A DNA stretch of 32,000 nucleotides from Geotalea daltonii FRC-32 (GTDB taxonomy: Bacteria > Desulfobacterota > Desulfuromonadia > Geobacterales > Geobacteraceae). Every line of letters begins with the position of its first letter. Position 1 is the first letter of the stretch. The stretch is taken from assembly GCF_000022265.1 (NCBI RefSeq), contig NC_011979.1, forward strand, positions 1,590,001 through 1,622,000, read 5' to 3'. Of this stretch, positions 2,646 to 32,000 are shown one piece after another. A program made the position numbers and the translations under genes. The notes under the pieces are model-generated. The model ran no database searches. It saw only the letters and a list, made by a program, of their open reading frames with translations, and was not told the DNA's origin.

Positions 2646-3257
2646 ATGGGGGCAAACAGGCTGAATATCACCTGGCATGACAGGGTACTGACCAAGGGTG
2701 ACTATCTTAAACGCAATGGGCACCAGCCTTTGGTGTTGTGGTTTACCGGACTTTCAGGGTCAGGCAAATCAACGCTTGCCCATGCCGTTGAAGAAGAGCT
2801 GTTCAGGAAAGGCTGCTATACGTATATACTGGATGGCGACAATATACGCCACGGACTCAACAGCGACCTTGGATTTTCTGAGGCTGACCGGAGGGAGAAC
2901 ATCAGGCGTATCGGGGAAGTTGCCAAGCTTTTTGTTGATGCCGGCATTATAGTTCTGGCAGCATTTATTTCTCCTTACCGGGAAGACCGGGAGAGGGTTC
3001 GGGCACTTTTCGAACCTGCTGAATTTATCGAGGTATTTGTCAATTGCGACCTTGCTGTATGTGAAAGCCGCGATCCGAAAGGGCTTTATCGCAAGGCACG
3101 TTCAGGAGAGTTGAAGCAGTTCACCGGGATCGACAGCCCATATGAAGTGCCTTTTAGCCCCGAGCTGGTTGTCAATACTGCATGCAGTACGGTGAAAAGC
3201 GGTGTCCAGTCGGTGCTTGCATTCGTTAGGGACCGGGGACTGATAAACGGTGATTAG
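2646..3257 (+). CDS. cysC: Adenylylsulfate (APS) kinase
   Basis: AGGAG 6-7 nt upstream of the ATG. Canonical motifs [71 protein letters not shown]. The stop codon TAG (3255-3257) lies inside heptamer array A. Confidence 0.95.
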
Positions 3258-3353
3258 TGATTGGTGATTGGTGAACTCCGAACTTCGAACTTCGAACTTC
3301 GAACCTCGAACCTCGAACCTCGAACTTCGAACGTAAAACGTAGAACCTCGAAT
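3249..3353 (+). repeat. Heptanucleotide tandem array A (15 units in a single 7-nt phase)
   Basis: Read directly: GGTGATT AGTGATT GGTGATT GGTGAAC TCCGAAC TTCGAACx3 CTCGAACx3 TTCGAAC GTAAAAC GTAGAAC CTCGAAT. It starts in the last two codons of cysC and ends 19 nt before the cysD ATG. Confidence 0.95.
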
Positions 3354-3372: not shown

Positions 3373-4170
3373 ATGACGCATCTGGAAGAACTTGAAAATA
3401 AATCTATTTATATATTGCGCGAAGCATACAAGAATTTCGACAATCTCTGTATGCTCTGGTCCATTGGCAAGGATTCGACGGTGATGCTCTGGCTGGTGAG
3501 AAAGGCATTCTTCGGTCACTGTCCGATCCCGCTGGTGCACATCGATACCTCATATAAAATCAAGGAGATGATTGCCTATCGCGATCAATTGGCCGAGGAG
3601 TGGGGGCTGACCCTGGTGGTGGGGCAAAACAAGGATGCTCTGGAAAAAGGCATGAACCCTGCGCTGGGGCGTATGGAATGTTGCACTGCCTTGAAGACTG
3701 AGGGGCTACGACGCACCCTTGCCGATAAAAAATACAATGGAGTCATCGTCGGAGTACGTTCCGACGAAGAGGGTACCAGGGCAAAGGAGCGTTATTTTTC
3801 CCCCAGGGACAAGAACAACGACTGGGACTTCAGGGAGCAGCCCCCCGAGTTGTGGGACCAGTTCAAGACCCGCTTCGAGCCCGGAACCCATGTCCGTATC
3901 CACCCCCTCCTGGATTGGACCGAGATCAATATCTGGGAATATATAAAAAAGGAAAATATTCCGGTGATTCCACTGTATTTCGACCAGGGTAGCGGCAGTC
4001 GCTATCGCAGCCTTGGTTGTGCCCCCTGCACCGGCGCCATCCAGTCCACAGCGAAAACTGTCGATCAAATTATCGAAGAGCTGCGCAATACCAAGGTTGC
4101 AGAGCGTTCCGGGCGCGCCCAGGACGCCGATCGCGGCATGGAAAAATTGCGCAAGGATGGGTACATGTAG
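3373..4170 (+). CDS. cysD: Sulfate adenylyltransferase subunit 2 (PAPS reductase-fold ATP pyrophosphatase)
   Basis: [22 protein letters not shown]..., SIGKDS PP-loop motif, C-terminal [18 protein letters not shown], all typical of CysD. ATG 3373 is preferred over the TTG at 3367 given by the ORF track. Confidence 0.95.
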
Positions 4171-4174
4171 AGGC

Positions 4175-4202
4175 GGTGATTGGTGATTGGTGATCGGTGG
4201 AA
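4175..4202 (+). repeat. Heptanucleotide array B (GGTGATT GGTGATT GGTGATC GGTGGAA)
   Basis: Starts 4 nt after the cysD stop with the junction AGGCGGTGATTGGTGATT and ends 2 nt before the ATG of the four-helix-bundle gene. Confidence 0.9.
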
Positions 4203-4204
4203 GT

Positions 4205-4585
4205 ATGTCTGGGGATCGGCCTAAAGCTAGAAGTCATAAAGACCTTCAGGTGTGGCAGCGAGCAATGTCTTTGGTGGTGTCCCTTTATGAATTGCTCAGG
4301 TCTTTTCCTGCCGATGAACGCTTCGGCTTGGTTGACCAGATCAAGCGTTCGGCTATCTCCATCCCTTCGAATATTGCTGAAGGGGCTGCACGACAGACCT
4401 CAAGAGAATACATTCAATTTCTGTATATCGCTGCCGAGTCAGCGGCAGAGCTTGACACGCAGCTTATACTTGCCCAGAGGCTTGGTTTTTCCACAGAGAT
4501 CGAAACTCAACTGGAAGAATTGCAGATTGTCCGCAAGCAGCTGAACGTAATGATCACAACACTGCGAGCAAACCATGAAAAGTGA
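4205..4585 (+). CDS. Four-helix-bundle protein (23S rRNA intervening-sequence protein family; Avd-like)
   Basis: [85 protein letters not shown] is the hallmark sequence of this family. ATG 4205 is preferred because the upstream extension (4187) only reads through the repeat. Confidence 0.9.
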
Positions 4586-6434
4586 AAAATCACCAGGCAC
4601 CATTCACCAATCACCAACGTCCAATCACGAATCACGACGAATTACGAATCACCAATCACGAATCACCAATCACCAATTTTTACAAGTGGTTTTCGTCGGC
4701 CATGTGGACCATGGCAAATCTACCCTGCTCGGCCGCATTTACGCCGACACCGATTCCCTTCCCGTCGGCCAATTGGAAAAGGTACGGGCAATTTGCGAGC
4801 AGCAGGGAAAGACATTCGAATATGCCTTTCTTTTCGATGCCTTTCTTGAAGAGCAAGAGCAGGGAATCACCATTGACACTGCCCGCACATTTTTCAACTG
4901 GGGCAACAGGCACTACATAATCATCGATGCCCCAGGCCACAAAGAATTCCTCAAGAACATGATATCCGGTGCAGCAAGGGCGGAGGCCGCAGTTCTTATC
5001 ATCGATGCAGCCGAAGGGGTTGCGGAGCAGTCGAAACGTCACGGTTACATGCTGAGTTTGCTGGGGATCAGGCAGATAGCCGTAGTCGTAAACAAGATGG
5101 ATCTCGTAAATCATGATCAAAAAGTTTTTGAAGCAATAGTTACCGAATACTCAGCCTTCCTTAAAGAGCTCGGTGTCACACCGCGTCAATTCGTTCCTGC
5201 CAGCGCCAGAAACGGAGATAACGTGGTCACGGGCAGTGATGCCATGCCCTGGTATGACGGCCCTACCGTTTTGGAATCTCTCGGCCGTTTCGAAAAACTG
5301 CCCAGTGGAGAAGAATTGCCGTTGCGTTTTCCGGTGCAGGACGTCTATAAATTCGATGCCCGCCGGATCATTGCCGGCCGGGTCGCTGCAGGTATGTTGA
5401 AGGTCGGCGACAGTCTGGTCTTTTCCCCTTCCAACAAGACGGCGGTGATCAAAACCATCGAGGCTTTCAATGTTGCCCATCTGCCTCTTTCTGCCGGAGT
5501 CGGCAAATCTACCGGCTTCACTCTGGACGAACAGATTTTTGTCGAACGTGGCGAGGTAGCATCGCTGAAGGAATCCTTGCCGGAGGTAACCGACCTCTTC
5601 CGCGCCAATCTCTTCTGGATGGGCAAAAATCCCATGGTCGGCAATCGTCCCTATCTGCTTCGCCTGGCAACGAAGGAAGTGGAAATGGAGCTGGCCGAAA
5701 TCCATCGCATCATCGATGCCGGCAGCCTTGACCCGGTAATGGCCAGGGAGCAGATAGAAAAGAATGACGTCGCCGAAGTCACCATAAGAACTAAAAAGCC
5801 TCTGGCTCTGGATTGTTTTTGCGACTGCGACATCACCGGGCGTTTCGTCGTTGTGGATGGCTATGATGTTTGCGGTGGGGGCATCGTCACCCAGGTACTG
5901 GACAACGACCAGGAGACCTTTCGCCGGGAGGCCAGGCAGCGCGATATTGCCTGGCGCCGCGGAGAAGTGCAACTTGGCGAGCGGGTGCAACGGAACGGGC
6001 ACAACCCGGGCATCATCCTCTTTACGGGAGAAAGCGGCACCGGCAAGGCCCGCCTTGCACGTCATCTGGAGCGCCGGCTTTTCGATGGCGGGCGTCAGGT
6101 GTATCTCCTTGATGGGAAGAACCTGCTTCTCGGGCTTGGCTCCGACGTCACCGAACAAGACAAGGAGGAGATGGTCCGGCGGTTCGGCGAAGTTGCCCAG
6201 ATTCTGTTGCGAGCCGGGCAGATTGTGGTATCGACCACCAATACCTTTGCCCAGGCAGATCATCAGATCATCAGCACCCTTGTTTATCCCCACCAGGTAA
6301 TTTCCGTGCACATGTCCTTTGCCAGGGGGGCTGTACCGGAAAAAACCGATCTCCGCTTTCTCGAATCGGACGACCTGAAAAAGGCCGCCAAACAGATTGT
6401 GGAGAAGATGGAAGAGTTGGGGATCCTGCTGTAA
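4575..6434 (+). CDS. cysN: Sulfate adenylyltransferase subunit 1 (GTPase) fused to a degenerate APS-kinase-like C-terminal domain
   Basis: [15 protein letters not shown] (G1), DAPGH, NKMD motifs and EF-Tu-like domains II/III. The C-terminal ~150 aa resemble CysC but with altered motifs. Start is uncertain: ATG 4575 translates array C as a 35-aa extension, and the only alternative is GTG 4686, just 4 codons before GHVDHGKS. Confidence 0.9.
4588..4674 (-). repeat. Heptanucleotide array C, reverse orientation (AATCACC-type, 12 units plus a 3-nt ACG insertion)
   Basis: AATCACC AGGCACC ATTCACC AATCACC AACGTCC AATCACG AATCACG [ACG] AATTACG AATCACC AATCACG AATCACC AATCACC. This is the reverse complement of the GGTGATT family and lies between the four-helix-bundle stop (4585) and the conserved CysN G-domain. 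Confidence 0.95.
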
Positions 6435-6438
6435 AGGC

Positions 6439-6589
6439 GGTGATTGGTGATACTTCGGTGATTGGTGATTGGTGAAGGGTGAAGGGTGAAGGGTGAAGGG
6501 TGAAGGGTGAAGGGTGAAGGGTGAAGGGTGAAGGGCACGACCTCGAACATGGAACATAGAACGTAGAACATAGAACATAGAACATAGAA
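6439..6589 (+). repeat. Heptanucleotide array D (composite)
   Basis: GGTGATT GGTGATA [CTTC] GGTGATT GGTGATT (GGTGAAG)x9 GGCACGA CCTCGAA CATGGAA CATAGAA CGTAGAA (CATAGAA)x3. The 19 units 6457-6589 share one phase. It begins 4 nt after the cysN TAA with AGGCGGTGATTGGTGAT and ends 19 nt before the wzm ATG. Confidence 0.95.
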
Positions 6590-6608
6590 CGGATTTTGCG
6601 GGGTAAAG

Positions 6609-7421
6609 ATGCAAGCATTAAGGATGTTCAGTAACTTCATTGCCGAATTGTGGTCGCGTCGGCACATGATCATCGAGCTGGCAAAACGGGATTTCAAAAC
6701 CAAGTACCTCGGCTCTTACCTGGGGATGCTCTGGGCTTTTGTTCACCCGACAGTGTATATAATTATTCTCTGGTTCGTTTTTCAGGTGGGCTTCAAGTCA
6801 CAGCCCCAGGCCAATTATCCGTTCGTCCTCTGGATGATGTGCGGCATCGTTCCCTGGTTCTTCTTCAGTGAATGCCTGCAGAGCGCTACCATGTCCATCA
6901 TCGACAACAGCTTTCTTCTTAAAAAGATGGCTTTCAGCATCGGCATGCTTCCCATCGTCAAAATTCTCTCCGCGCTGGTAATCCACTTTTTCTTTATCCT
7001 GGTCGTTTTCGTCATGATCCTTCTCTATGGGCTGCCGATTTCCCTTCACAGCCTGCAGGTTTTTTACTACCTGTTCGCCGCCATAACACTGCTCCTTGGC
7101 CTGTCCTGGCTTACATCCTCACTGGTGGTTTTCCTCAGGGATGTGGGGCAATTGGTTGCCATGGCTTTGCAGTTCGCCTTCTGGGTGACCCCCATCTTCT
7201 GGTCGGCAAAGATCCTCCCCGATAAGTACGCTAACCTGGTCAAGCTCAACCCTGTCTACTACCTGGTGGAAGGCTACCGGGAAAGCTTCATCTACAAGAC
7301 CTGGTTTTGGGAGAGCCACTATGTGCTGACCCTCTATTTTTGGGCTGTTACCGGCATTATTTTTGTGCTGGGTGCGGTCGTGTTCAGGAGGCTGCGGCCA
7401 CATTTCGCGGATGTTTTGTAG
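6609..7421 (+). CDS. wzm: ABC-2 type polysaccharide export permease
   Basis: N-terminal ELWSRRHMIIELAKRDFKTKYLGSYLGMLWAFVHP signature and six predicted hydrophobic helices, typical of Wzm/KpsM/TagG. Confidence 0.9.
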   Translation: MQALRMFSNFIAELWSRRHMIIELAKRDFKTKYLGSYLGMLWAFVHPTVYIIILWFVFQVGFKSQPQANYPFVLWMMCGIVPWFFFSECLQSATMSIIDNSFLLKKMAFSIGMLPIVKILSALVIHFFFILVVFVMILLYGLPISLHSLQVFYYLFAAITLLLGLSWLTSSLVVFLRDVGQLVAMALQFAFWVTPIFWSAKILPDKYANLVKLNPVYYLVEGYRESFIYKTWFWESHYVLTLYFWAVTGIIFVLGAVVFRRLRPHFADVL

Positions 7422-7423
7422 AC

Positions 7424-7497
7424 GGTGATTGGTGATTAGACGGTGATTGGTGATTGGTGATTGGTGATTGGTGGATGGTGGATGGTGGATGGTGGAG
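7424..7497 (+). repeat. Heptanucleotide array E
   Basis: GGTGATTx2 [AGAC] GGTGATTx4 GGTGGATx3 GGTGGAG. The first 36 nt, including the wzm TAG, form an 18-nt tandem duplication TAGACGGTGATTGGTGAT x2 (7419-7454). Confidence 0.95.
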
Positions 7498-7500
7498 CGC

Positions 7501-7547
7501 TTGACTGATGTCTTACAAAAGAATACAGTGTAAGCACATGTCTTGCA
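7501..7547 (+). promoter_or_regulatory. Putative sigma70-type promoter with palindromic operator for the toxin-antitoxin pair
   Basis: TTGACT (7501-7506), 17 nt, TACAGT (7524-7529). Inverted repeat CTTACA...TGTAAG straddles the -10. Direct repeat ATGTCTT(A/G)CA at 7508-7517 and 7538-7547. GGAGG lies 6 nt before ATG 7564. Confidence 0.5.
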
Positions 7548-7563
7548 TTTTCCGGAGGTAGCC

Positions 7564-7821
7564 ATGCTGAAAGCAGCTAATATAACTGTTCGTATCAAAC
7601 CAACAACCAAGATGCGCATCGATGCCCTGGCGCAGGCTACCAAGCGCTCTAAGTCCTATGTCGTCGAGGAGGCGTTGGAACAGTACCTGGAGGTAAACGA
7701 GTGGCAGGTTAAAGGGATCGAGGCCGCCTTACATGAGGCCGACAGTTCCGATGCTGAATGGGTTGATCATAAAGATGTCCTGGCAAAGTGGGAGGCCAAG
7801 TTTGCGGATAAAGTGGCTTAG
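7564..7821 (+). CDS. Ribbon-helix-helix (CopG/ParD-like) antitoxin
   Basis: MLKAANITVRIKPTTKMRIDALAQATKRSKSYVVEEALEQYL is an RHH fold signature. It overlaps the downstream toxin gene by 20 nt. Confidence 0.8.
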   Translation: MLKAANITVRIKPTTKMRIDALAQATKRSKSYVVEEALEQYLEVNEWQVKGIEAALHEADSSDAEWVDHKDVLAKWEAKFADKVA

Positions 7822-8086
7822 ACAGGCGCTTCTTGATCTCGATGAAGTAGAAAGCTATATTGCCAGGGACAATCCAGTTGCAGCTATAGGTGTGGTAACT
7901 AAAATAGTCAAAATGGTTTCTGTTCTTGAGAAGCAGCCGGGACTTGGTCGTCCTGGTCGCGTCCCAGGCTCCAAGGAACTTGTTATTCCCGATACTCCTT
8001 TCATTGTTCCTTACCGGGTGAAGGATGGCTTGGTGCAGGTATTACGGGTCTATCATACATCAAGAAGGTGGCCAGATAACATTTAG
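7802..8086 (+). CDS. RelE/ParE-family toxin
   Basis: RQALLDLDEVESYIARDNPVAAIGVVTKI...GRPGRVPGSKELVIPDTPFIVPYRV..GLVQVLRVYHTSRRWP is a typical ParE layout. TTG 7802 with GGAGG 6 nt upstream is preferred over ATG 7733, which would overlap the antitoxin by 89 nt. Confidence 0.75.
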   Translation: MRIKWLRQALLDLDEVESYIARDNPVAAIGVVTKIVKMVSVLEKQPGLGRPGRVPGSKELVIPDTPFIVPYRVKDGLVQVLRVYHTSRRWPDNI

Positions 8087-8280: not shown

Positions 8281-8370
8281 AGTTAATGGGCAAAAGGCAA
8301 CCTGCTATTTAACGGATGAATTTTTATTTTCGCGATATCAACGTTAATGTATTTCTACTTTCAGCCTGTA

Positions 8371-8400
8371 GACCACCGTCTTCCGTCTTCCGCTCTTCCG
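8371..8400. repeat. Short direct repeat, copy 2, containing a mini-array CCGTCTT CCGTCTT CCGCTCTT
   Basis: GACCACCGTCTTCCGTCTTCCGCTCTTCCG read directly. Confidence 0.5.
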
Positions 8401-8691
8401 TTTGATTTTTTGGTCTTTATCTTGCATCAATACCCTCGTCTTGTGTGTATTTGTCACTTTAATGTGAATAAATATTTTAAAAAACCTTTACCTTTTTTAA
8501 TTCTTGCTTTATTTGTAGGGAAGTAGCTTCTCATTCATGATGCAACGCAAGGTGTGCGCGAGGAAAATGATCCTGAAAAGGGGAAAAATGATCCCCGCCA
8601 AATAGAGAAATAACTGGTTAAATAGCACGCAGCATATTCGAATCAGAGACATACCATAAGTCAAAAGACACATAAACAGGAGGCAAAGAAC

Positions 8692-9524: not shown

Positions 9525-10544
9525 ATGATCATGAAGCTGGTGCAAATGGTTCAGAAGGTAAAAAATATTTGTCTTAACAATGTAGAAAAAACAAACACTA
9601 TGGCGCAAAGACATTATAAATTTGCATATATAGAACCTGTCAGAGCATGTCCGGTAAAGTGTATTCCTTGTCCTGTTGGCCGAAACGTACTTTTTAAGCA
9701 TCCTGTGGTGGTCTTGGATCTGGAGATTGCTCGCAGGTGTTTTGCAAAGCTCAGGGGACAATTCGGTATAGATACATTAATAATGGGGAATTGGGGGGAG
9801 CCATTACTTCATCCGCAATTCCCTGAACTCGTGCAGCTGGCTAGGAGTTCAGGGTTTAGACAGATAGAAGTATCAACTTCACTTTCAGTAAAATGCGATA
9901 TGGCTAGTATTATAGGTGCAGGGCTAGACTGTATCCAGATTTCTATGTCAGGAATAACAAAAGACGTTTACAATCAAAGTCACAGATTTGGAGACTTTGA
10001 CCTTATATTTAAGAATCTTGAATCTTTAGTCAGTCTTAATAAAGTAAAAACTACCCCGGCTGGCATTGTTATTCGCTGGCATCGTTATCACCATAATGAA
10101 GCTCAGTTTGAGGCAGTAAGCAACTTTTGTAAAGATCTTGGCTTAGGTCTATTGCCATACTTCGGCCATCTCGGTAGTATAGAGGCTATGCGGGACTGGT
10201 CCAATCATCAACTTGAAGAACCTCTTAAATCTTTTGTTTATAACTCTGTCTTTACTGAATTTATAGAAAAAGCATGTATTCTAAATAAAGGGGCCACAAA
10301 TTGTAAGCAGTCGGAGTTTGTGGTTTTAGATGCCGACGGTTCGTTGGTATTTTGTTGCTCTTGCTATAAAAACTACAAAACGAATGCTCCCTTTCTAGCG
10401 ATGAGTGCAAGCGAGATAGAATCTTTTAAATCCCCCAATTCAACTATTTGCAGTCTTTGTCTTGGTAGCGGCTGGTCTGGGTATATGAATAGACCAAAGA
10501 CACTGGAGGAGTATGATGGGTGCATTTCTTTGGGCGCAACATAG
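9525..10544 (+). CDS. Radical SAM enzyme with SPASM/twitch-like C-terminal Cys cluster
   Basis: CPVKCIPC (CxxxCxxC), GNWGEPLLHP (GGE-type SAM motif), C-terminal CKQSEFVVLDADGSLVFCCSC (C-x11-G-x4-C) and CSLC. Start is uncertain (9525, 9531 or ATG 9600, which lies 12 codons before the Cys motif). Confidence 0.85.
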   Translation: MIMKLVQMVQKVKNICLNNVEKTNTMAQRHYKFAYIEPVRACPVKCIPCPVGRNVLFKHPVVVLDLEIARRCFAKLRGQFGIDTLIMGNWGEPLLHPQFPELVQLARSSGFRQIEVSTSLSVKCDMASIIGAGLDCIQISMSGITKDVYNQSHRFGDFDLIFKNLESLVSLNKVKTTPAGIVIRWHRYHHNEAQFEAVSNFCKDLGLGLLPYFGHLGSIEAMRDWSNHQLEEPLKSFVYNSVFTEFIEKACILNKGATNCKQSEFVVLDADGSLVFCCSCYKNYKTNAPFLAMSASEIESFKSPNSTICSLCLGSGWSGYMNRPKTLEEYDGCISLGAT

Positions 10545-10705
10545 GGGTCTATGAGTATGTATGCGTTAGAGGCAAAAGAAGGACCTACCACTGCAGATCG
10601 TCGCACACGGCGTCCGTGCTCTAAATTAACAATTTCAATATCTATAAGGAACCACTCAAAATAATTAATAAGCCTAAGGCGGGAGCAGCCCAGGAAATTC
10701 TAATT

Positions 10706-12037
10706 ATGAGTCACGATAGGCAAATCGCAATTGCAGTAAAAAATCTAACCAAAGTCTACAAGCTTTACGATACCCCATTGGACCGAGTTAAAGAGTCGAT
10801 AAATCCATTTAGCCGGAAGTATCACAAAGATTTCTATGCGCTCAATGATGTAAGCTTTGACATTGAAAAGGGATCCACTATTGGTATTATCGGCAAAAAT
10901 GGATCAGGTAAATCAACTCTTCTCAAAACAATAACAGGAGTGCTGACACCATCAAGTGGTAGTGTTACTGTCAATGGAAAAATTTCTGCTCTGCTTGAGC
11001 TAGGCGCAGGGTTTAATACTGAGTTGACAGGTATTGATAACATTTACTTTAATGGGACCCTCCAAGGGTACACTAAAGATGAGATAGATTTAAAGTTAGA
11101 TGAAATTCTATCTTTTGCGGATATTGGAGAGTTTGTGTTTCAACCTGTCAAAAGCTATTCAAGCGGCATGTTTGTTCGGTTGGCTTTTGGAGTGGCAATC
11201 AATGTTGATCCTGATATATTAATCGTTGATGAAGCTCTGGCAGTAGGGGATATAAAATTTCAGCGCAAGTGTTTTTCCAAGATCGAAGAATTTCATAAGA
11301 AAGGTAAAACTATAATTTTTGTTTCGCACGGTTTAGATACAATCAACCTTCTCTGCGACACTGCATATCTGCTTGATGGAGGCAGATTGATTGAAGAAGG
11401 CCTGCCCAAGAATGTTACTAAAGTATATCAAAAAATGATGTTAGGCGAAGACACTATTAGTTCTACAACGGACGTATGTTTGGGAAAAGAGTTAGAATTC
11501 CTATACGACCTACCGTCTGAGCAGGATTGTGAGTTTTATACAAATGAATACGACACCCAGAAATTAAACGAATTAGTTAAAGATAAAATCCAAAAGTGGG
11601 ACGGCCATAAAAAGGCAGAAATCATAGATTGTGGTATTTGGGATGCGCTGGGTAATAAAGTCACTCTTCTGGAATGTGGTGCACATTACACTTTTTATTC
11701 GAAGATACTTATTCATGTAGATTTAGAAGTCATACATGTTGGTTTCCCTATCAAAAATGTTAAAGGCCTAATGCTTTTTGGTGTAAACAGCGAGATACAA
11801 AAAGTTGCAGTTACGCCAAAAACAAAGGGAAATGTTGTTGAGGGTCGTGTCGACGTTACGATGTGGCTGGCGCCAGGCAATTATTTTCTCTCGTTTAGAG
11901 CTGCTACAAGACAGGAAGTTTTCGACGAGTTGAATGATCAAGTACACTTTGTTGTAACAGGCGGCAACCATACCCTCAATGCTCTTTCCGTAGTGAATTT
12001 GGAGCCAAAGGTGACCCTCAGAACTTTGGCTTTCTAA
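10706..12037 (+). CDS. wzt: Polysaccharide export ABC transporter ATP-binding protein with C-terminal carbohydrate-binding (Wzt_C-like) domain
   Basis: Walker A GKNGSGKST, signature SYSSGM, Walker B ILIVDE, H-loop VSHG. An extra ~170-aa beta-rich C-terminal domain (AEIIDCGIWDALGNKV...GNYFLSFRAA...VHFVV) matches terminus-recognising Wzt proteins. Confidence 0.9.
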   Translation: MSHDRQIAIAVKNLTKVYKLYDTPLDRVKESINPFSRKYHKDFYALNDVSFDIEKGSTIGIIGKNGSGKSTLLKTITGVLTPSSGSVTVNGKISALLELGAGFNTELTGIDNIYFNGTLQGYTKDEIDLKLDEILSFADIGEFVFQPVKSYSSGMFVRLAFGVAINVDPDILIVDEALAVGDIKFQRKCFSKIEEFHKKGKTIIFVSHGLDTINLLCDTAYLLDGGRLIEEGLPKNVTKVYQKMMLGEDTISSTTDVCLGKELEFLYDLPSEQDCEFYTNEYDTQKLNELVKDKIQKWDGHKKAEIIDCGIWDALGNKVTLLECGAHYTFYSKILIHVDLEVIHVGFPIKNVKGLMLFGVNSEIQKVAVTPKTKGNVVEGRVDVTMWLAPGNYFLSFRAATRQEVFDELNDQVHFVVTGGNHTLNALSVVNLEPKVTLRTLAF

Positions 12038-30096: not shown

Positions 30097-32000
30097 ATGA
30101 GTGCATCTTGGCTGAACGGTAAAATACCCGCTTTCTTTTTTGGAAGGATACGACACGCAGCTGTTGTTCACGGCATGATACTGATGCTCGTGGGTTTTTT
30201 TGCCTACGCCAATACCTTCGACGCCCAGTTCAATTTCGACGACGTACCGGCGATTCTCGGCAATCCCACTGTCAGGAGCGCGGAATCAGTGACAGATCCC
30301 CTGGCGATACGAGGGAACAGGGGGGTGGGAAATTTCAGCTTTGCCCTGAATTACAAGATTGCCGCCGAGCTCACGGGAGACGGCTTTTCCGTCCGCGGCT
30401 ATCATTATTTCAACCTTGCCGTCCATCTTGCCAATGCTTTGCTGGTCTATCTGCTGGTGATCCTGACTATCCGGAGGTCCACATCAGGGGAAAGCAGTGA
30501 GTGGCGGGGCAGGGGGATCGCTTTTTTGGCCGCTCTCCTTTTCGTCAGCCATCCGTTGCAGACCCAGGCTGTAACCTATATTGTCCAGCGCTTCACCTCT
30601 CTGGCCACAACCTTTTACCTATTATCACTGGTCTTTTACATATTCGCCCGCAGCCAGCGGGGTGACTCGACAAACGGCAACCGTTTGAAGGCTGCCGTGT
30701 TTTGGGCACTCTCAATCGTGCTGGCGGCACTGGCAATGGGAACCAAGGAAATTGCCATAACCCTTCCATTTACAATCATCCTCTACGAATTCCTTTTTTT
30801 CAGGGGAAGCATCGTCAAACGTTTACTGGCAGCCGGCGCCTTTCTCCTCACCCTGATCATCATTCCCCTCAGCATTATCGGTGCATCCGGCGGACAGCTT
30901 TTGAGCAGGATAGAGGCTGCAACAAAAGTTCAGACGGACATGTCGCGGCTGGATTACCTGTACACCCAGTTCAAGGTGGTAGTGACCTATTTGAGGCTGC
31001 TTTTTTTCCCGGCCGGGCAGAACCTGGAGTACGACTACCCCGTTTCCCATTCCTTTTTCGAGGCGGGGGTGATTCTCTCTTTCCTGCTGCTACTGGCGAT
31101 ATTTGGGCTTGGCGTCTATTTCCTTTATCGTTCGAAGTTCGAGGTTCGAGGTTCGAAGTTCGAAGTTGGCCAAGCGCATTCACCAATCACCAATCACCAA
31201 TCACCAATAACCAATCACCGCCTCATCGCCTTCGGCATTTTCTGGTTTTTCATTACCCTGTCGGTTGAGTCCAGTTTCATTCCCATTGTGGATGTCATCT
31301 TCGAGCATCGCGTCTATCTACCGTCGGTGGGCTTCTTCATCGCCGTCGCCACCCTGGTCGTCCTGGGTGCCGAAAAGCTTTCCCTGGGAAGGCCCAGGGT
31401 TGCCGACGGCCTGCTGGTATCCATATTGCTGCTGTCCTGTGTGCTGGCGCTGCTTACCTTCAATCGCAACCGGGTCTGGGCCGATGAGATAACCCTCTGG
31501 GAGGATGTAGCCGCCAAATCGCCGAACCTTTCCAGGCCATGGAACAACCTGGGCTACGCCTATCTCAAGCATCGTCTGCCGAAAAAGGCCATCCCGGCCC
31601 TCATTACCTCCATAACCATTTCTCCCGGTTCTCCCGATGCCTGGAACAACGTCGGAATGGCACTCACGCAGCTTGGCAGCTATACCGGGCGCTTCAGTCC
31701 CACTTATGAACTGTTCGATATGAGTGCCGGCATCACCTCGACCTATCAGAGCGAGTGGTTTGCCCTGGCTTACAACAATCTCGGCCTGGCCTACGATTCC
31801 ATGGGACAGGTCAATGAATCCATCGAGAACTTCCAGAAAGCGATCTCCATGAACCCGCGCCTGGCTCAGGCCTATTACAATCTGGGACTGGCCTTTCTTG
31901 CCATAAAAGACAAAGGGCAGGCTGCAGATCAGTATCGAATGTTGAGATCCCTCGATCCGGAACTGGCGGCAAAGCTGCGGGAAGCGGTGATTGGTGATTG
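30097..32000 (+). CDS. GT-C-fold (PMT/TMTC-like) polytopic membrane protein with C-terminal TPR repeats; 3-prime end beyond the window
   Basis: Not in the ORF track because no stop occurs. I read frame 1 open from ATG 30097 to nt 32000. First-loop FNFDDVPAILGNP (DD motif), many hydrophobic helices, EHRVYLPSVGFF, then TPR-like WNNLGYAY..., AYNNLGLAYDSMGQ..., AYYNLGLAFLAIKD.... Contains array F in frame. Confidence 0.85.
   Translation, partial: MSASWLNGKIPAFFFGRIRHAAVVHGMILMLVGFFAYANTFDAQFNFDDVPAILGNPTVRSAESVTDPLAIRGNRGVGNFSFALNYKIAAELTGDGFSVRGYHYFNLAVHLANALLVYLLVILTIRRSTSGESSEWRGRGIAFLAALLFVSHPLQTQAVTYIVQRFTSLATTFYLLSLVFYIFARSQRGDSTNGNRLKAAVFWALSIVLAALAMGTKEIAITLPFTIILYEFLFFRGSIVKRLLAAGAFLLTLIIIPLSIIGASGGQLLSRIEAATKVQTDMSRLDYLYTQFKVVVTYLRLLFFPAGQNLEYDYPVSHSFFEAGVILSFLLLLAIFGLGVYFLYRSKFEVRGSKFEVGQAHSPITNHQSPITNHRLIAFGIFWFFITLSVESSFIPIVDVIFEHRVYLPSVGFFIAVATLVVLGAEKLSLGRPRVADGLLVSILLLSCVLALLTFNRNRVWADEITLWEDVAAKSPNLSRPWNNLGYAYLKHRLPKKAIPALITSITISPGSPDAWNNVGMALTQLGSYTGRFSPTYELFDMSAGITSTYQSEWFALAYNNLGLAYDSMGQVNESIENFQKAISMNPRLAQAYYNLGLAFLAIKDKGQAADQYRMLRSLDPELAAKLREAVIGD
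31130..31220 (-). repeat. Heptanucleotide array F, reverse orientation, inside the GT-C/TPR coding sequence (13 units, one phase)
   Basis: GTTCGAA GTTCGAG GTTCGAG GTTCGAA GTTCGAA GTTGGCC AAGCGCA TTCACCA ATCACCAx3 ATAACCA ATCACCG. This is the reverse complement of an array-A-type (GGTGATT)n-(TTCGAAC)n composite. It is translated as [31 protein letters not shown]. Confidence 0.95.
31986..32000 (+). repeat. Heptanucleotide array G (start only; GCGGTGATTGGTGATTG at the window edge)
   Basis: Same GCGGTGATTGGTGATT junction as the other forward arrays, here at the C-terminal end of the GT-C/TPR ORF. Confidence 0.8.

Follow-up and report, generated by a model that had tools for sequence, protein, structure and literature searches.

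A four-helix-bundle gene between inverted heptanucleotide arrays at the cysD-cysN junction of Geotalea daltonii

We analyzed a 32,000-nucleotide stretch of the Geotalea daltonii FRC-32 genome (contig NC_011979.1, positions 1,590,001 to 1,622,000; hereafter the window), in which a gene for a four-helix-bundle (4HB) protein lies between cysD and cysN, enclosed by two arrays of a 7-nt unit in inverted orientation. On balance, and with some reserve, we read positions 4175-4677 as a compact, promoter-less cassette: a 4HB open reading frame (ORF) ended on both sides by inverted arrays, whose arms would pair with each other and through which translation would be relayed to cysN. Comparison of orthologous loci establishes that the cassette was inserted, in one sub-lineage of the Geobacteraceae only, into an ancestral junction at which the cysD stop and the cysN start overlapped, and that, in inheritance and exchange alike, arms and ORF have stayed together regardless of the flanking genes. 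Most of the 4HB relatives that we sampled in unrelated metagenomes and viral contigs are set in this same architecture of a gene between inverted arrays.

Intergenic tandem arrays of heptamers have long been noted in bacteria as a curiosity that lacks a mechanism, and the 4HB family (PF05635/TIGR02436) was first noticed within rRNA intervening sequences (IVSs) about thirty years ago. If 4HB gene and arrays regularly form one cassette (G-rich arm, ORF, C-rich arm), the two puzzles become one testable problem. One may then ask whether the protein binds the arms, whether these serve as RNase III sites or as recombination ends, and whether orphan arrays are footprints left by cassettes.

The cassette and its insertion site

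The coordinates of all features are collected in Table 1. Between the cysD stop codon (TAG, 4168-4170) and the G-rich 5' arm lies the leader AGGC, and the arm closes all three reading frames because its GGTGATT unit array contains TGA. The unit of the C-rich, degenerate 3' arm is the reverse complement of the 5' unit, and this arm is free of stop codons in every frame. Inverted pairs I1-I13 were detected between the arrays, the best of which joins 4175-4199 to 4650-4674 (25 nt, 23/25 complementary, 92%). The window contains 27 copies of the double unit GGTGATTGGTGATT when up to two mismatches are allowed, where 0.34 would be expected. The first-pass annotation, which was made from the letters alone, had recognized the inverted arrays bracketing a 4HB gene between cysD and cysN, and Tandem Repeats Finder, the inverted-repeat search and the PF05635 and TIGR02436 matches bear it out. 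The reverse complement that it gave for 4647-4677 is correct; the pairing that it put at about 20 of 21 positions comes to 19/21 Watson-Crick pairs in either register.

When the region 4160-4700 is folded as RNA, the minimum free energy (MFE) is -176 kcal/mol, compared with -151.7 +/- 6.7 for shuffled sequences (z = -3.65). The predicted closing helix of 37 pairs leaves a loop of approximately 440 nt that holds the entire 4HB ORF and the cysN start codon. The duplex between the two arms has a predicted energy of -40.6 kcal/mol (z = -4.8 versus shuffles). A stem with the whole ORF in its loop had been proposed from the letters; the fold predicts it, and its units covary between lineages, as described below.

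The enclosed ORF matches PF05635 with an E-value of 6.5e-35 (120 bits, cut-off 33.8) and TIGR02436 with 119.2 bits (cut-off 24). An alternative TTG start at 4187 gives a protein of 132 amino acids and is the start chosen in the public gene call P0001; an exact-sequence look-up of the 126 amino acid form came back empty because the public gene calls begin at this TTG. The family is very large (6,311 relatives at E-value <= 1e-10 in one search). By sequence, the relatives with solved structures are 2GSC (XCC0516, E-value 6.5e-26) and 2RLD. XCC0516 is a homopentamer (PMC4990558), and judging from sequence similarity the window protein would likewise adopt a four-helix-bundle fold and assemble into a pentameric toroid. 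It contains the RxxxSxxxNxxE(G) family motif, as given in PMC3936711, and it keeps every residue that is invariant in a 22-member alignment (R48, S52, S55-N56-I57-A58-E59-G60, R63, E68, E82, T85 and Q86). The dN/dS ratio of the gene is 0.06-0.07 in comparisons with L085 and L086, two of the orthologous loci described below; the protein is therefore under purifying selection and functional. A HEPN-like identity of the family was dropped after a profile comparison with the HepT protein of L085 gave a probability of 3.8%. The defence-system models of PADLOC gave 0 families at E-value <= 0.01.

What does the junction look like in related genomes? In six other Geobacteraceae (L007-L012, two Geomonas species among them), the cysD stop overlaps the cysN start (TGATG), CysN begins with M(D/E), and the junction contains no array and no additional gene. 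The first-pass annotation had described the two genes as normally adjacent and had suggested a search for empty sites in relatives; these six sites agree with the former and answer the latter, the array being absent along with the gene. Seven further loci have a 4HB gene at exactly the cysD-cysN junction: those of the closest species representatives, Geotalea sp. SG265 (L005) and a metagenome-assembled genome (MAG; L006), in both of which CysD is 95% identical to that of the window, and L085, L086 and L087-L089. With the window, the orthologous filled loci number eight, and in all eight the arm-arm duplex beats dinucleotide shuffles (z = -2.4 to -8.4). Within cysD and cysN, sliding nucleotide identity among the filled loci is 75-92%; abrupt shifts mark position 4170, where cysD stops, and position 4677, where the 3' array ends on its outer side. 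The upstream flank of the cassette is cysD and the downstream flank cysN, whose conserved core starts at about 4677.

The relationships of the 4HB genes differ from those of their neighbors. CysN is 91% and the 4HB protein 58% identical between the window and L005; the corresponding values are 84% and 86% between the window and L085, and 90% and 59% between L085 and L087. Between L085 and L086, dS is 0.06 for the 4HB gene, 0.67 for cysD and 0.57 for cysN. Because the 4HB and CysN identities and the dS values disagree in this way, the history of the cassette is decoupled from that of its flanks.

The arm unit tracks the 4HB lineage. The window, L085 and L086 have GGTGATT in the 5' arm and AATCACC in the 3' arm (five units on each side in L086), and L006 and L087-L089 have GGTCGGC, AGACGGC or AGTCGGC in the 5' arm and GCCGACC or GCCGACT in the 3' arm. 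Terminal inverted repeats with the ORF in the loop are thus found with covarying units in seven of the eight orthologous loci. The correspondence extends to a single variant unit: L085 has GGTGGTT in its 5' arm and the complement AACCACC at the mirrored place of its 3' arm, and L086, whose 4HB protein is 97% identical, has neither. L085 and L086 have GGTGATT arms on contigs whose remaining arrays are GGTCGGC-type, and the complementarity of the arms is therefore not a side effect of one unit favored throughout the genome. The proposal that gene and arrays make up a discrete insertable cassette is borne out by the empty sites, by the breaks in identity at 4170 and 4677 and by a phylogeny and dS values decoupled from the flanks.

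Arrays around 4HB genes in metagenomes and viral contigs

We scanned metagenome contigs of the Joint Genome Institute (JGI) with an alignment of 22 diverse 4HB proteins and obtained 80 loci. For each testable gene, we took 100 nt on either side of the ORF (up to the start and from the stop onward) and scored their duplex against shuffles, and 204 ORFs of 100-250 codons from the same metagenome loci served as controls. The median z of this flank duplex is -2.4 for the 71 testable 4HB genes and 0.05 for the controls, with 41% and 2.9%, respectively, below -3 (Mann-Whitney test, p-value 5e-13). The pairing arises from inverted tandem arrays whose unit varies from locus to locus, e.g., TGGTGAG/CTCACCA, GTGACAA/TTGTCAC, CAGTACC/GGGTACT and GGTTAAAA/TTTTAACC; 4HB proteins that are 74-89% identical have related units. 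In some loci the arms are close to perfect Watson-Crick complements (68 matches and 5 mismatches in L097, 37 and 1 in L169, 30 and 1 in L095).

Within 150 nt of a 4HB gene, arrays with periods of 5-9 nt reach 10.5 times the density that they have in the rest of the same loci. Among the 102 arrays near 4HB genes, 77 have period 7, 22 have period 8 and three have period 6 or 9. They abut the ORF, the median distance being 15 nt to the start codon and 5.5 nt from the stop codon. The units on the two sides differ in base composition, with 31% G and 11% C upstream against 9% G and 34% C downstream, and a stop codon lies within the unit in 34 of 49 upstream and 20 of 48 downstream arrays. The 4HB genes are on the same strand as their neighbors in 104 of 121 comparisons.

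In IMG/VR viral contigs, scanned independently, the picture is similar: an array accompanies 22 of 26 4HB genes, and of the 15 genes with arrays on both sides 14 have them inverted. When metagenomes and viral contigs are pooled, 78 of 94 distinct 4HB genes (83%) have an array of 7-8-nt units within 150 nt. Arrays are found on both sides of 53 genes (56%), and in 39 of these 53 (74%) the units are reverse complements of each other. The median arm length is 31-33 nt, and the lengths on the two sides correlate weakly (rho = 0.27, p-value 0.10). Universal 23S motifs gave only scattered chance matches across the 80 metagenome loci, placing no sampled 4HB gene in rRNA. Within a limited literature collection, we found no published link between S23p/four-helix-bundle genes and heptamer repeats.

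Of the inferences in the first-pass annotation, a discrete cassette and a family tied to the arrays are thus supported more broadly than its reader could know. The tie itself holds (density, 83% of the pooled genes with an array, 74% of two-sided cases inverted); an exclusive tie does not, since arrays occur elsewhere with no 4HB gene.

Proposed translation through the cassette and competing explanations

No promoter-like or terminator-like sites are predicted between cysC and cysN, and the genes from cysC to cysN therefore look like a single transcript. In all eight filled loci, a start codon for cysN overlaps the 3' end of the 4HB gene (ATGAAAAGTGA, GTGA or GTGAAAAGTAA), and the frame that it opens runs through the array into the conserved CysN core; in six of the eight it is the sole in-frame start before the P-loop. 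Independent gene callers start cysN at this codon in the relatives (products of 606, 606, 633 and 646 amino acids). We conclude that the window CysN most probably begins at ATG 4575, with a low-complexity N-terminal extension of 34 codons encoded by the 3' arm. The length of the extension ranges from 13 to 60 codons across the filled loci, with L087, L088 and L089 set apart from one another by entire in-frame blocks of 39 nt (13 codons). The first-pass annotation had counted 12 AATCACC-type units here, which agrees with the 12.4 copies that we find; to this we add the correction that the array is not spacer but lies within the cysN frame.

These observations suggest how the operon might work around its insertion. 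The G-rich, stop-containing 5' arm and the C-rich, stop-free 3' arm would together delimit the 4HB ORF, and the arms are predicted to pair in the operon transcript (37 bp here), with the ORF in the loop, as in ORF-bearing 23S rRNA IVSs. By termination-reinitiation, ribosomes that finish cysD would open the 5' arm and get to the 4HB start, 35 nt beyond the cysD stop; those that finish the 4HB gene would begin again at ATG 4575, which overlaps its stop, and translate the 3' arm on into cysN. CysN would thereby gain its variable low-complexity N-terminal extension, and the former cysD-cysN coupling would be restored via the cassette. Left untranslated, a stem as long as this (25-37 bp) would lend itself to RNase III, and its cleavage would inactivate the cysN message. 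A host operon could in this way absorb an insertion, with translation relayed through the cassette and one arm turned into a protein extension.

The G-arm/C-arm order reads identically on both strands and is therefore uninformative about the direction of transcription. It guarantees stops at entry and open frames at exit, whichever strand is translated. This layout and the near-absence of periods 6 and 9 hint at a translation-related constraint.

Several points weigh against a paired, translated cassette of this kind. Across the 44 loci with alignable arms, mismatches comprise 53 of G·U type, 69 of A·C type and 139 transversions; since G·U does not exceed A·C, selection on a sense-strand RNA helix is not demonstrated, and homogenization at the DNA level could maintain the complementarity. 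L005 has (GGTGGAT)x12.6 as its 5' arm and almost no 3' arm (z = -2.4). Reading through the 3' flank into the next gene is about as frequent for 4HB genes (9/65, 14%) as for controls (23/188, 12%), and co-option of the 3' arm by cysN is therefore specific to the cysD-cysN locus. Constitutive IVS-like excision can hardly operate here because cleavage of the stem would cut cysN from its only start in most loci. The surroundings of the cassettes examined showed no recombinase or other mobility gene, and homologous recombination through cysD and cysN can account for exchange at the cysD-cysN site. Heptamer arrays and array hairpins also exist without a 4HB gene. Lastly, the sampled 4HB genes represent the 35-60%-identical neighborhood of the query and not all of PF05635.

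With these points in mind, we grade the parts of the proposal separately. Most likely, the arms define the element as its cis-acting ends, and they may act mainly as RNA (processing or coupling) or mainly as DNA (mobilization or recombination). An RNase III/IVS-type mechanism is plausible, and at the cysD-cysN locus it conflicts with cysN expression; the stem here is better read as a structure melted by ribosomes, as a cleavage site for down-regulation or as an incidental result of ends that act at the DNA level.

The last of these options leads to an alternative that we regard as possible, if rather unlikely. In it the cassette is a non-autonomous element that moves or recombines and has the arms as its terminal inverted repeats or hairpin ends, or else the arms are homogenized by template switching or gene conversion, and pairing in the mRNA is incidental. 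The mismatches with no bias of G·U over A·C fit such an element, as do the many arms that are almost perfectly Watson-Crick (L097, L169, L095), the exchange of the cassette as a unit between lineages and its presence in viral contigs. The preferred G-arm...C-arm class, being strand-symmetric, is not bound to the direction of transcription, and other small modules also lie between arrays (RHH-ParE at 7543-8086, VapB/MNT/HepT in L085 and the GxxExxY genes). On the other hand, no transposase or integrase is in or beside the cassettes examined, and inspection by eye of the filled and empty junctions gave no convincing target-site duplication. Exchange at one conserved site fits ordinary homologous recombination via cysD and cysN, the 4HB genes are co-oriented with both neighbors more than a DNA-only element needs, and the classical setting of the family, the rRNA IVS, is processed as RNA (PMC4990558).

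A contingency locus is improbable. A 7-nt repeat in the 5' part of the cysN ORF would then be a slipped-strand switch for the synthesis of 3'-phosphoadenosine 5'-phosphosulfate (PAPS) and for the sulfation of surface polysaccharide. A repeat unit that is not a multiple of three in a 5' coding region, within a polysaccharide/sulfotransferase cluster, and an extension that varies from 13 to 60 codons between strains are what one would expect of it. Against this, all eight loci are in frame, close relatives differ by in-frame blocks of 39 nt rather than by single units, and the window array is degenerate (70% matches), which disfavors slippage; the 5' arm and the family-wide pattern would stay unexplained.

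We give even less credence to the arrays as a by-product, i.e., as hypermutable heptamer microsatellites that occupy all gaps, with the cysN array reversed because the TGA-bearing forward unit is not tolerated in coding sequence and with the 4HB insertion unrelated. Arrays do fill all operon gaps without 4HB genes; the other array within an ORF (31130-31219) is also reversed, stop-free and in frame, and the same orientation rule holds for TAACTGA repeats (MacGregor 2015, PMC4679880). This reading is already largely refuted by the 10.5-fold enrichment at 4HB genes, by the GGTGATT/AATCACC arms of L085 and L086 among GGTCGGC-type arrays elsewhere on their contigs, and by the viral and pooled counts (74% of two-sided cases reverse-complementary, viral contigs included). 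Moreover, non-coding gaps ahead of start codons contain reverse arrays too, and a coding constraint cannot explain inversion at other loci because read-through into the next gene is generally rare.

Finally, the idea that the window gene is an accessory gene (Avd) of a diversity-generating retroelement (DGR) can be dismissed, and the first-pass annotation had also held that this is no DGR: the similarity to NF033474 (23.8 bits, cut-off 80; E-value 4e-5) and to PF22296 bAvd (17.2 bits, cut-off 40) is weak and far under the cut-offs, no reverse transcriptase was found among the ORFs scanned in the 32 kb, and the window has no template/variable repeat pair, its direct repeats being the arrays and a glycosyltransferase paralogue only.

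Other arrays and comparison with known systems

The genes of the window form a cluster for surface polysaccharide and sulfation in a Geobacteraceae genome (Table 1). Downstream of the RHH-ParE pair, profile searches of the window ORFs identified Wzt, sulfotransferases and many glycosyltransferases. The C-terminal adenosine 5'-phosphosulfate (APS) kinase-like domain of CysN covers only part of its profile (residues 446-558) and exists alongside the separate, full cysC.

Table 1. Features of the cassette and of the surrounding window (positions in the window)
Feature	Position	Strand	Details
5' arm, G-rich (GGTGATT)x3.6	4175-4199	+	Tandem Repeats Finder: period 7, 94% matches
4HB protein gene (PF05635/TIGR02436), 126 aa	4205-4585	+	Profile matches above curated cut-offs
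3' arm, C-rich degenerate (AATCACC)x12.4	4588-4677	+	Tandem Repeats Finder: period 7, 70% matches, 6% indels
Predicted closing helix, 37 pairs	4162-4204 x 4644-4688	+	MFE and centroid agree
New cysN 5' end	4575-4676	+	ATG 4575 overlapping 4HB 3' end (ATGAAAAGTGA)
cysC	2646-3257	+	Stand-alone full APS kinase; NF003013 307 bits
cysD, sulfate adenylyltransferase small subunit	3373-4170	+	PF01507 E-value 1.8e-43; NF003587 377 bits
cysN fused to C-terminal APS-kinase-like domain (CysNC type)	4575-6434	+	PF00009, PF22594, PF01583; NF004035 446 bits
Wzm-type ABC-2 permease gene	6609-7421	+	After cysN
RHH-ParE toxin-antitoxin pair	7543-8086	+	After ABC-2 permease gene
Composite forward array, cysC-cysD gap, no 4HB	3249-3352	+	(GGTGATT)3.7 then (CGAACTT/CGAACCT)n
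Composite forward array after cysN, no 4HB	6439-6590	+	(GGTGATT), (GGTGAAG)x9.3, (GAACATA)x6.6
Forward array after ABC-2 permease gene	7424-7496	+	(GGTGATT)n then (TGGTGGA)x4
C-rich CCGTCTT array	~8370-8401		Tandem Repeats Finder rows 8376-8401
Reverse-orientation composite array (GTTCGAA)5(TCACCAA)6	31130-31219	+	In frame, 30 codons, within TPR/membrane protein ORF
Array	31986-32000		Tandem Repeats Finder

Arrays fill every intergenic gap of the window operon. The forward arrays begin at or just after stop codons with a common leader (A)AGGCGGTGATT (3249-3257, 4168-4178, 6432-6445, 7419-7430 and 31986-32000), and sometimes they supply the stop themselves: that of cysC is provided by the first unit of the 3249-3352 array (GGTGATTAG), and the ORF of the TPR protein runs into GGTGATTGGTGA. 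The sequence GGUGAU(C) is presumably complementary to a GAUCACC stretch in the 3' tail of 16S rRNA. Going by their sequence and position, forward arrays after stop codons may hold terminating ribosomes.

The array at 31130-31219 encodes a SPITNHQ-type peptide, as does the CysN extension. It lies in a loop of a TPR/PMT-like membrane protein (ORF from 30097 to beyond 32000) and is the reverse complement of the intergenic type. Homologues of this protein elsewhere have differing repeat-like low-complexity inserts in the same loop, including PPTTDRR, a translation of the GCCGACC type. We considered a frameshift, i.e., the OFF state of phase variation, at this array and rejected it: the three-frame translation gives one continuous ORF with the array in frame.

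Forward-then-reverse array hairpins with no ORF occur in the cysC-cysD gaps of L085 and L087-L089 and also after HepT in L085. A Nitrospinia MAG (L014), from a distant phylum, has (CAAGTGA)x6 at 6799-6850, at its cysD-cysN junction, and no 4HB gene. Other small genes are also found among arrays. The RHH-ParE pair of the window is flanked by G-rich arrays (7424-7496) and by the C-rich array, and their units, unlike those of the 4HB arms, are not complementary. In L085, a VapB/MNT/HepT module (6107-7465) follows cysN, where the window has arrays only; two direct copies of AAGGCGGTCGGCAGTCGGCGG delimit it, at 6107-6130 and 7287-7310, and a reverse array (7431-7461) follows. GxxExxY genes (TIGR04256, PD-(D/E)XK-like) are flanked by 8-nt arrays in two cases only (L114, 1160-1704 and 2741-3345; L006, 10361-11161). 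In L114, an identical leader (GTTTTGGC)n(GATATGAA)3 precedes both the GxxExxY gene and the 4HB gene. In L006, a higher-order repeat of 164-170 nt (2.3 and 4.3 copies) with CGCAGAG / TCTCTGCG octamer arrays at its core lies at 10161-11745, downstream of the ABC permease gene. Arrays may thus be a more general cassette boundary or landing pad, with the 4HB gene as the commonest cargo; with two cases, GxxExxY cargo is no more than a lead.

It is tempting to join these observations into one widespread system, a doubtful but testable proposal. A toroidal 4HB pentamer would bind arms of about five units, as RNA or single-stranded DNA, and make the cassette processable or mobile; we arrive at five units because the median arm is 31-33 nt and L086 has 5 + 5 units. 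ORF-bearing rRNA IVSs would be the same element residing in rRNA, and many orphan heptamer arrays, namely those of the short tandemly repeated repetitive (STRR) and TAACTGA types and those at every gap of the window operon, would be solo arms or landing pads. Other cargo, such as GxxExxY nucleases and toxin-antitoxin pairs, would be possible.

Arrays of this kind also have a practical consequence. Short-read assemblies of the source organism (Logan contigs L001-L004) break at the arrays, approximately 50-100 nt from the gene ends. Array-rich loci such as cysD-4HB-cysN are likely to be fragmented or missing in metagenome bins, and 4HB/array elements are probably under-represented there.

How does the element compare with known systems? 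Its nearest counterparts are the ORF-bearing 23S rRNA IVSs of Coxiella burnetii and Leptospira, which encode the same protein family (PF05635). The Coxiella IVS is 428 nt long and has a 28-bp terminal stem with the S23p ORF in its loop, and this IVS is cut by RNase III (PMC4990558). The two kinds of element share a size of approximately 430-500 nt, terminal inverted repeats forming a stem of approximately 25-37 bp with the ORF in the loop (predicted, in our case), and a sporadic, lineage-specific distribution that suggests horizontal acquisition. Unlike an rRNA IVS, the window element lies in a protein-coding operon and not in helix 9, 25 or 45 of 23S rRNA, and a scan of the window against Rfam returned zero families at the gathering score. 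Its arms are tandem arrays of a 7-nt unit, and its 3' arm is translated as part of the next gene. A stem of 25-37 bp is compatible with RNase III, but constitutive processing would harm cysN.

The arms resemble a second group of sequences, the heptamer arrays known as TAACTGA repeats in Beggiatoaceae, Cyanobacteria and Bacteroidetes, which have stop-bearing forward and in-ORF reverse orientations (PMC4679880), cyanobacterial STRR arrays and the heptanucleotide elements of Geobacter metallireducens (PMC2700814). In all of them tandem 7-nt units are intergenic, next to start or stop codons, and units and copy numbers vary between close relatives (PMC4679880, PMC2700814). As with TAACTGA and STRR arrays, we find that forward units in the window carry stops and that the copies within ORFs are reversed and translatable. 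The reports on TAACTGA repeats and on G. metallireducens make no mention of four-helix-bundle or IVS proteins (PMC4679880, PMC2700814), and paired inverted arrays bracketing a gene are not described there; MacGregor lists one indirect repeat among 170 repeat sets (PMC4679880).

Genes annotated as 23S_rRNA_IVP are interspersed in cas operons, e.g., between cmr3 and cmr2, and have been read as having a possible Cas-associated function (Zhang and Ye 2013, PMC3936711). As in the window, a small 4HB gene lies there between two genes of a conserved operon; flanking repeats, unlike here, were not examined in that paper (PMC3936711).

The Avd proteins of DGRs are also small helical-bundle proteins, from a related Pfam family. 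Avd is a pentamer, like XCC0516. The window protein differs in scoring under the cut-offs of the Avd models, and the window differs in showing no reverse transcriptase among the ORFs scanned and no template/variable repeats. With contingency genes based on simple sequence repeats, such as those with 7-bp repeats at Haemophilus hmw, the locus shares a repeat at the 5' end of a gene related to surface structure, with a unit length not divisible by three. The leader of Neisseria opa contains pentamer repeats. Unlike these genes, the eight loci include no out-of-frame alleles, and the variation observed is in frame. Taken together, we rate the window element as an IVS-type stem-loop element with tandem-repeat arms, of a kind that resides in mRNA operons and phage genomes.

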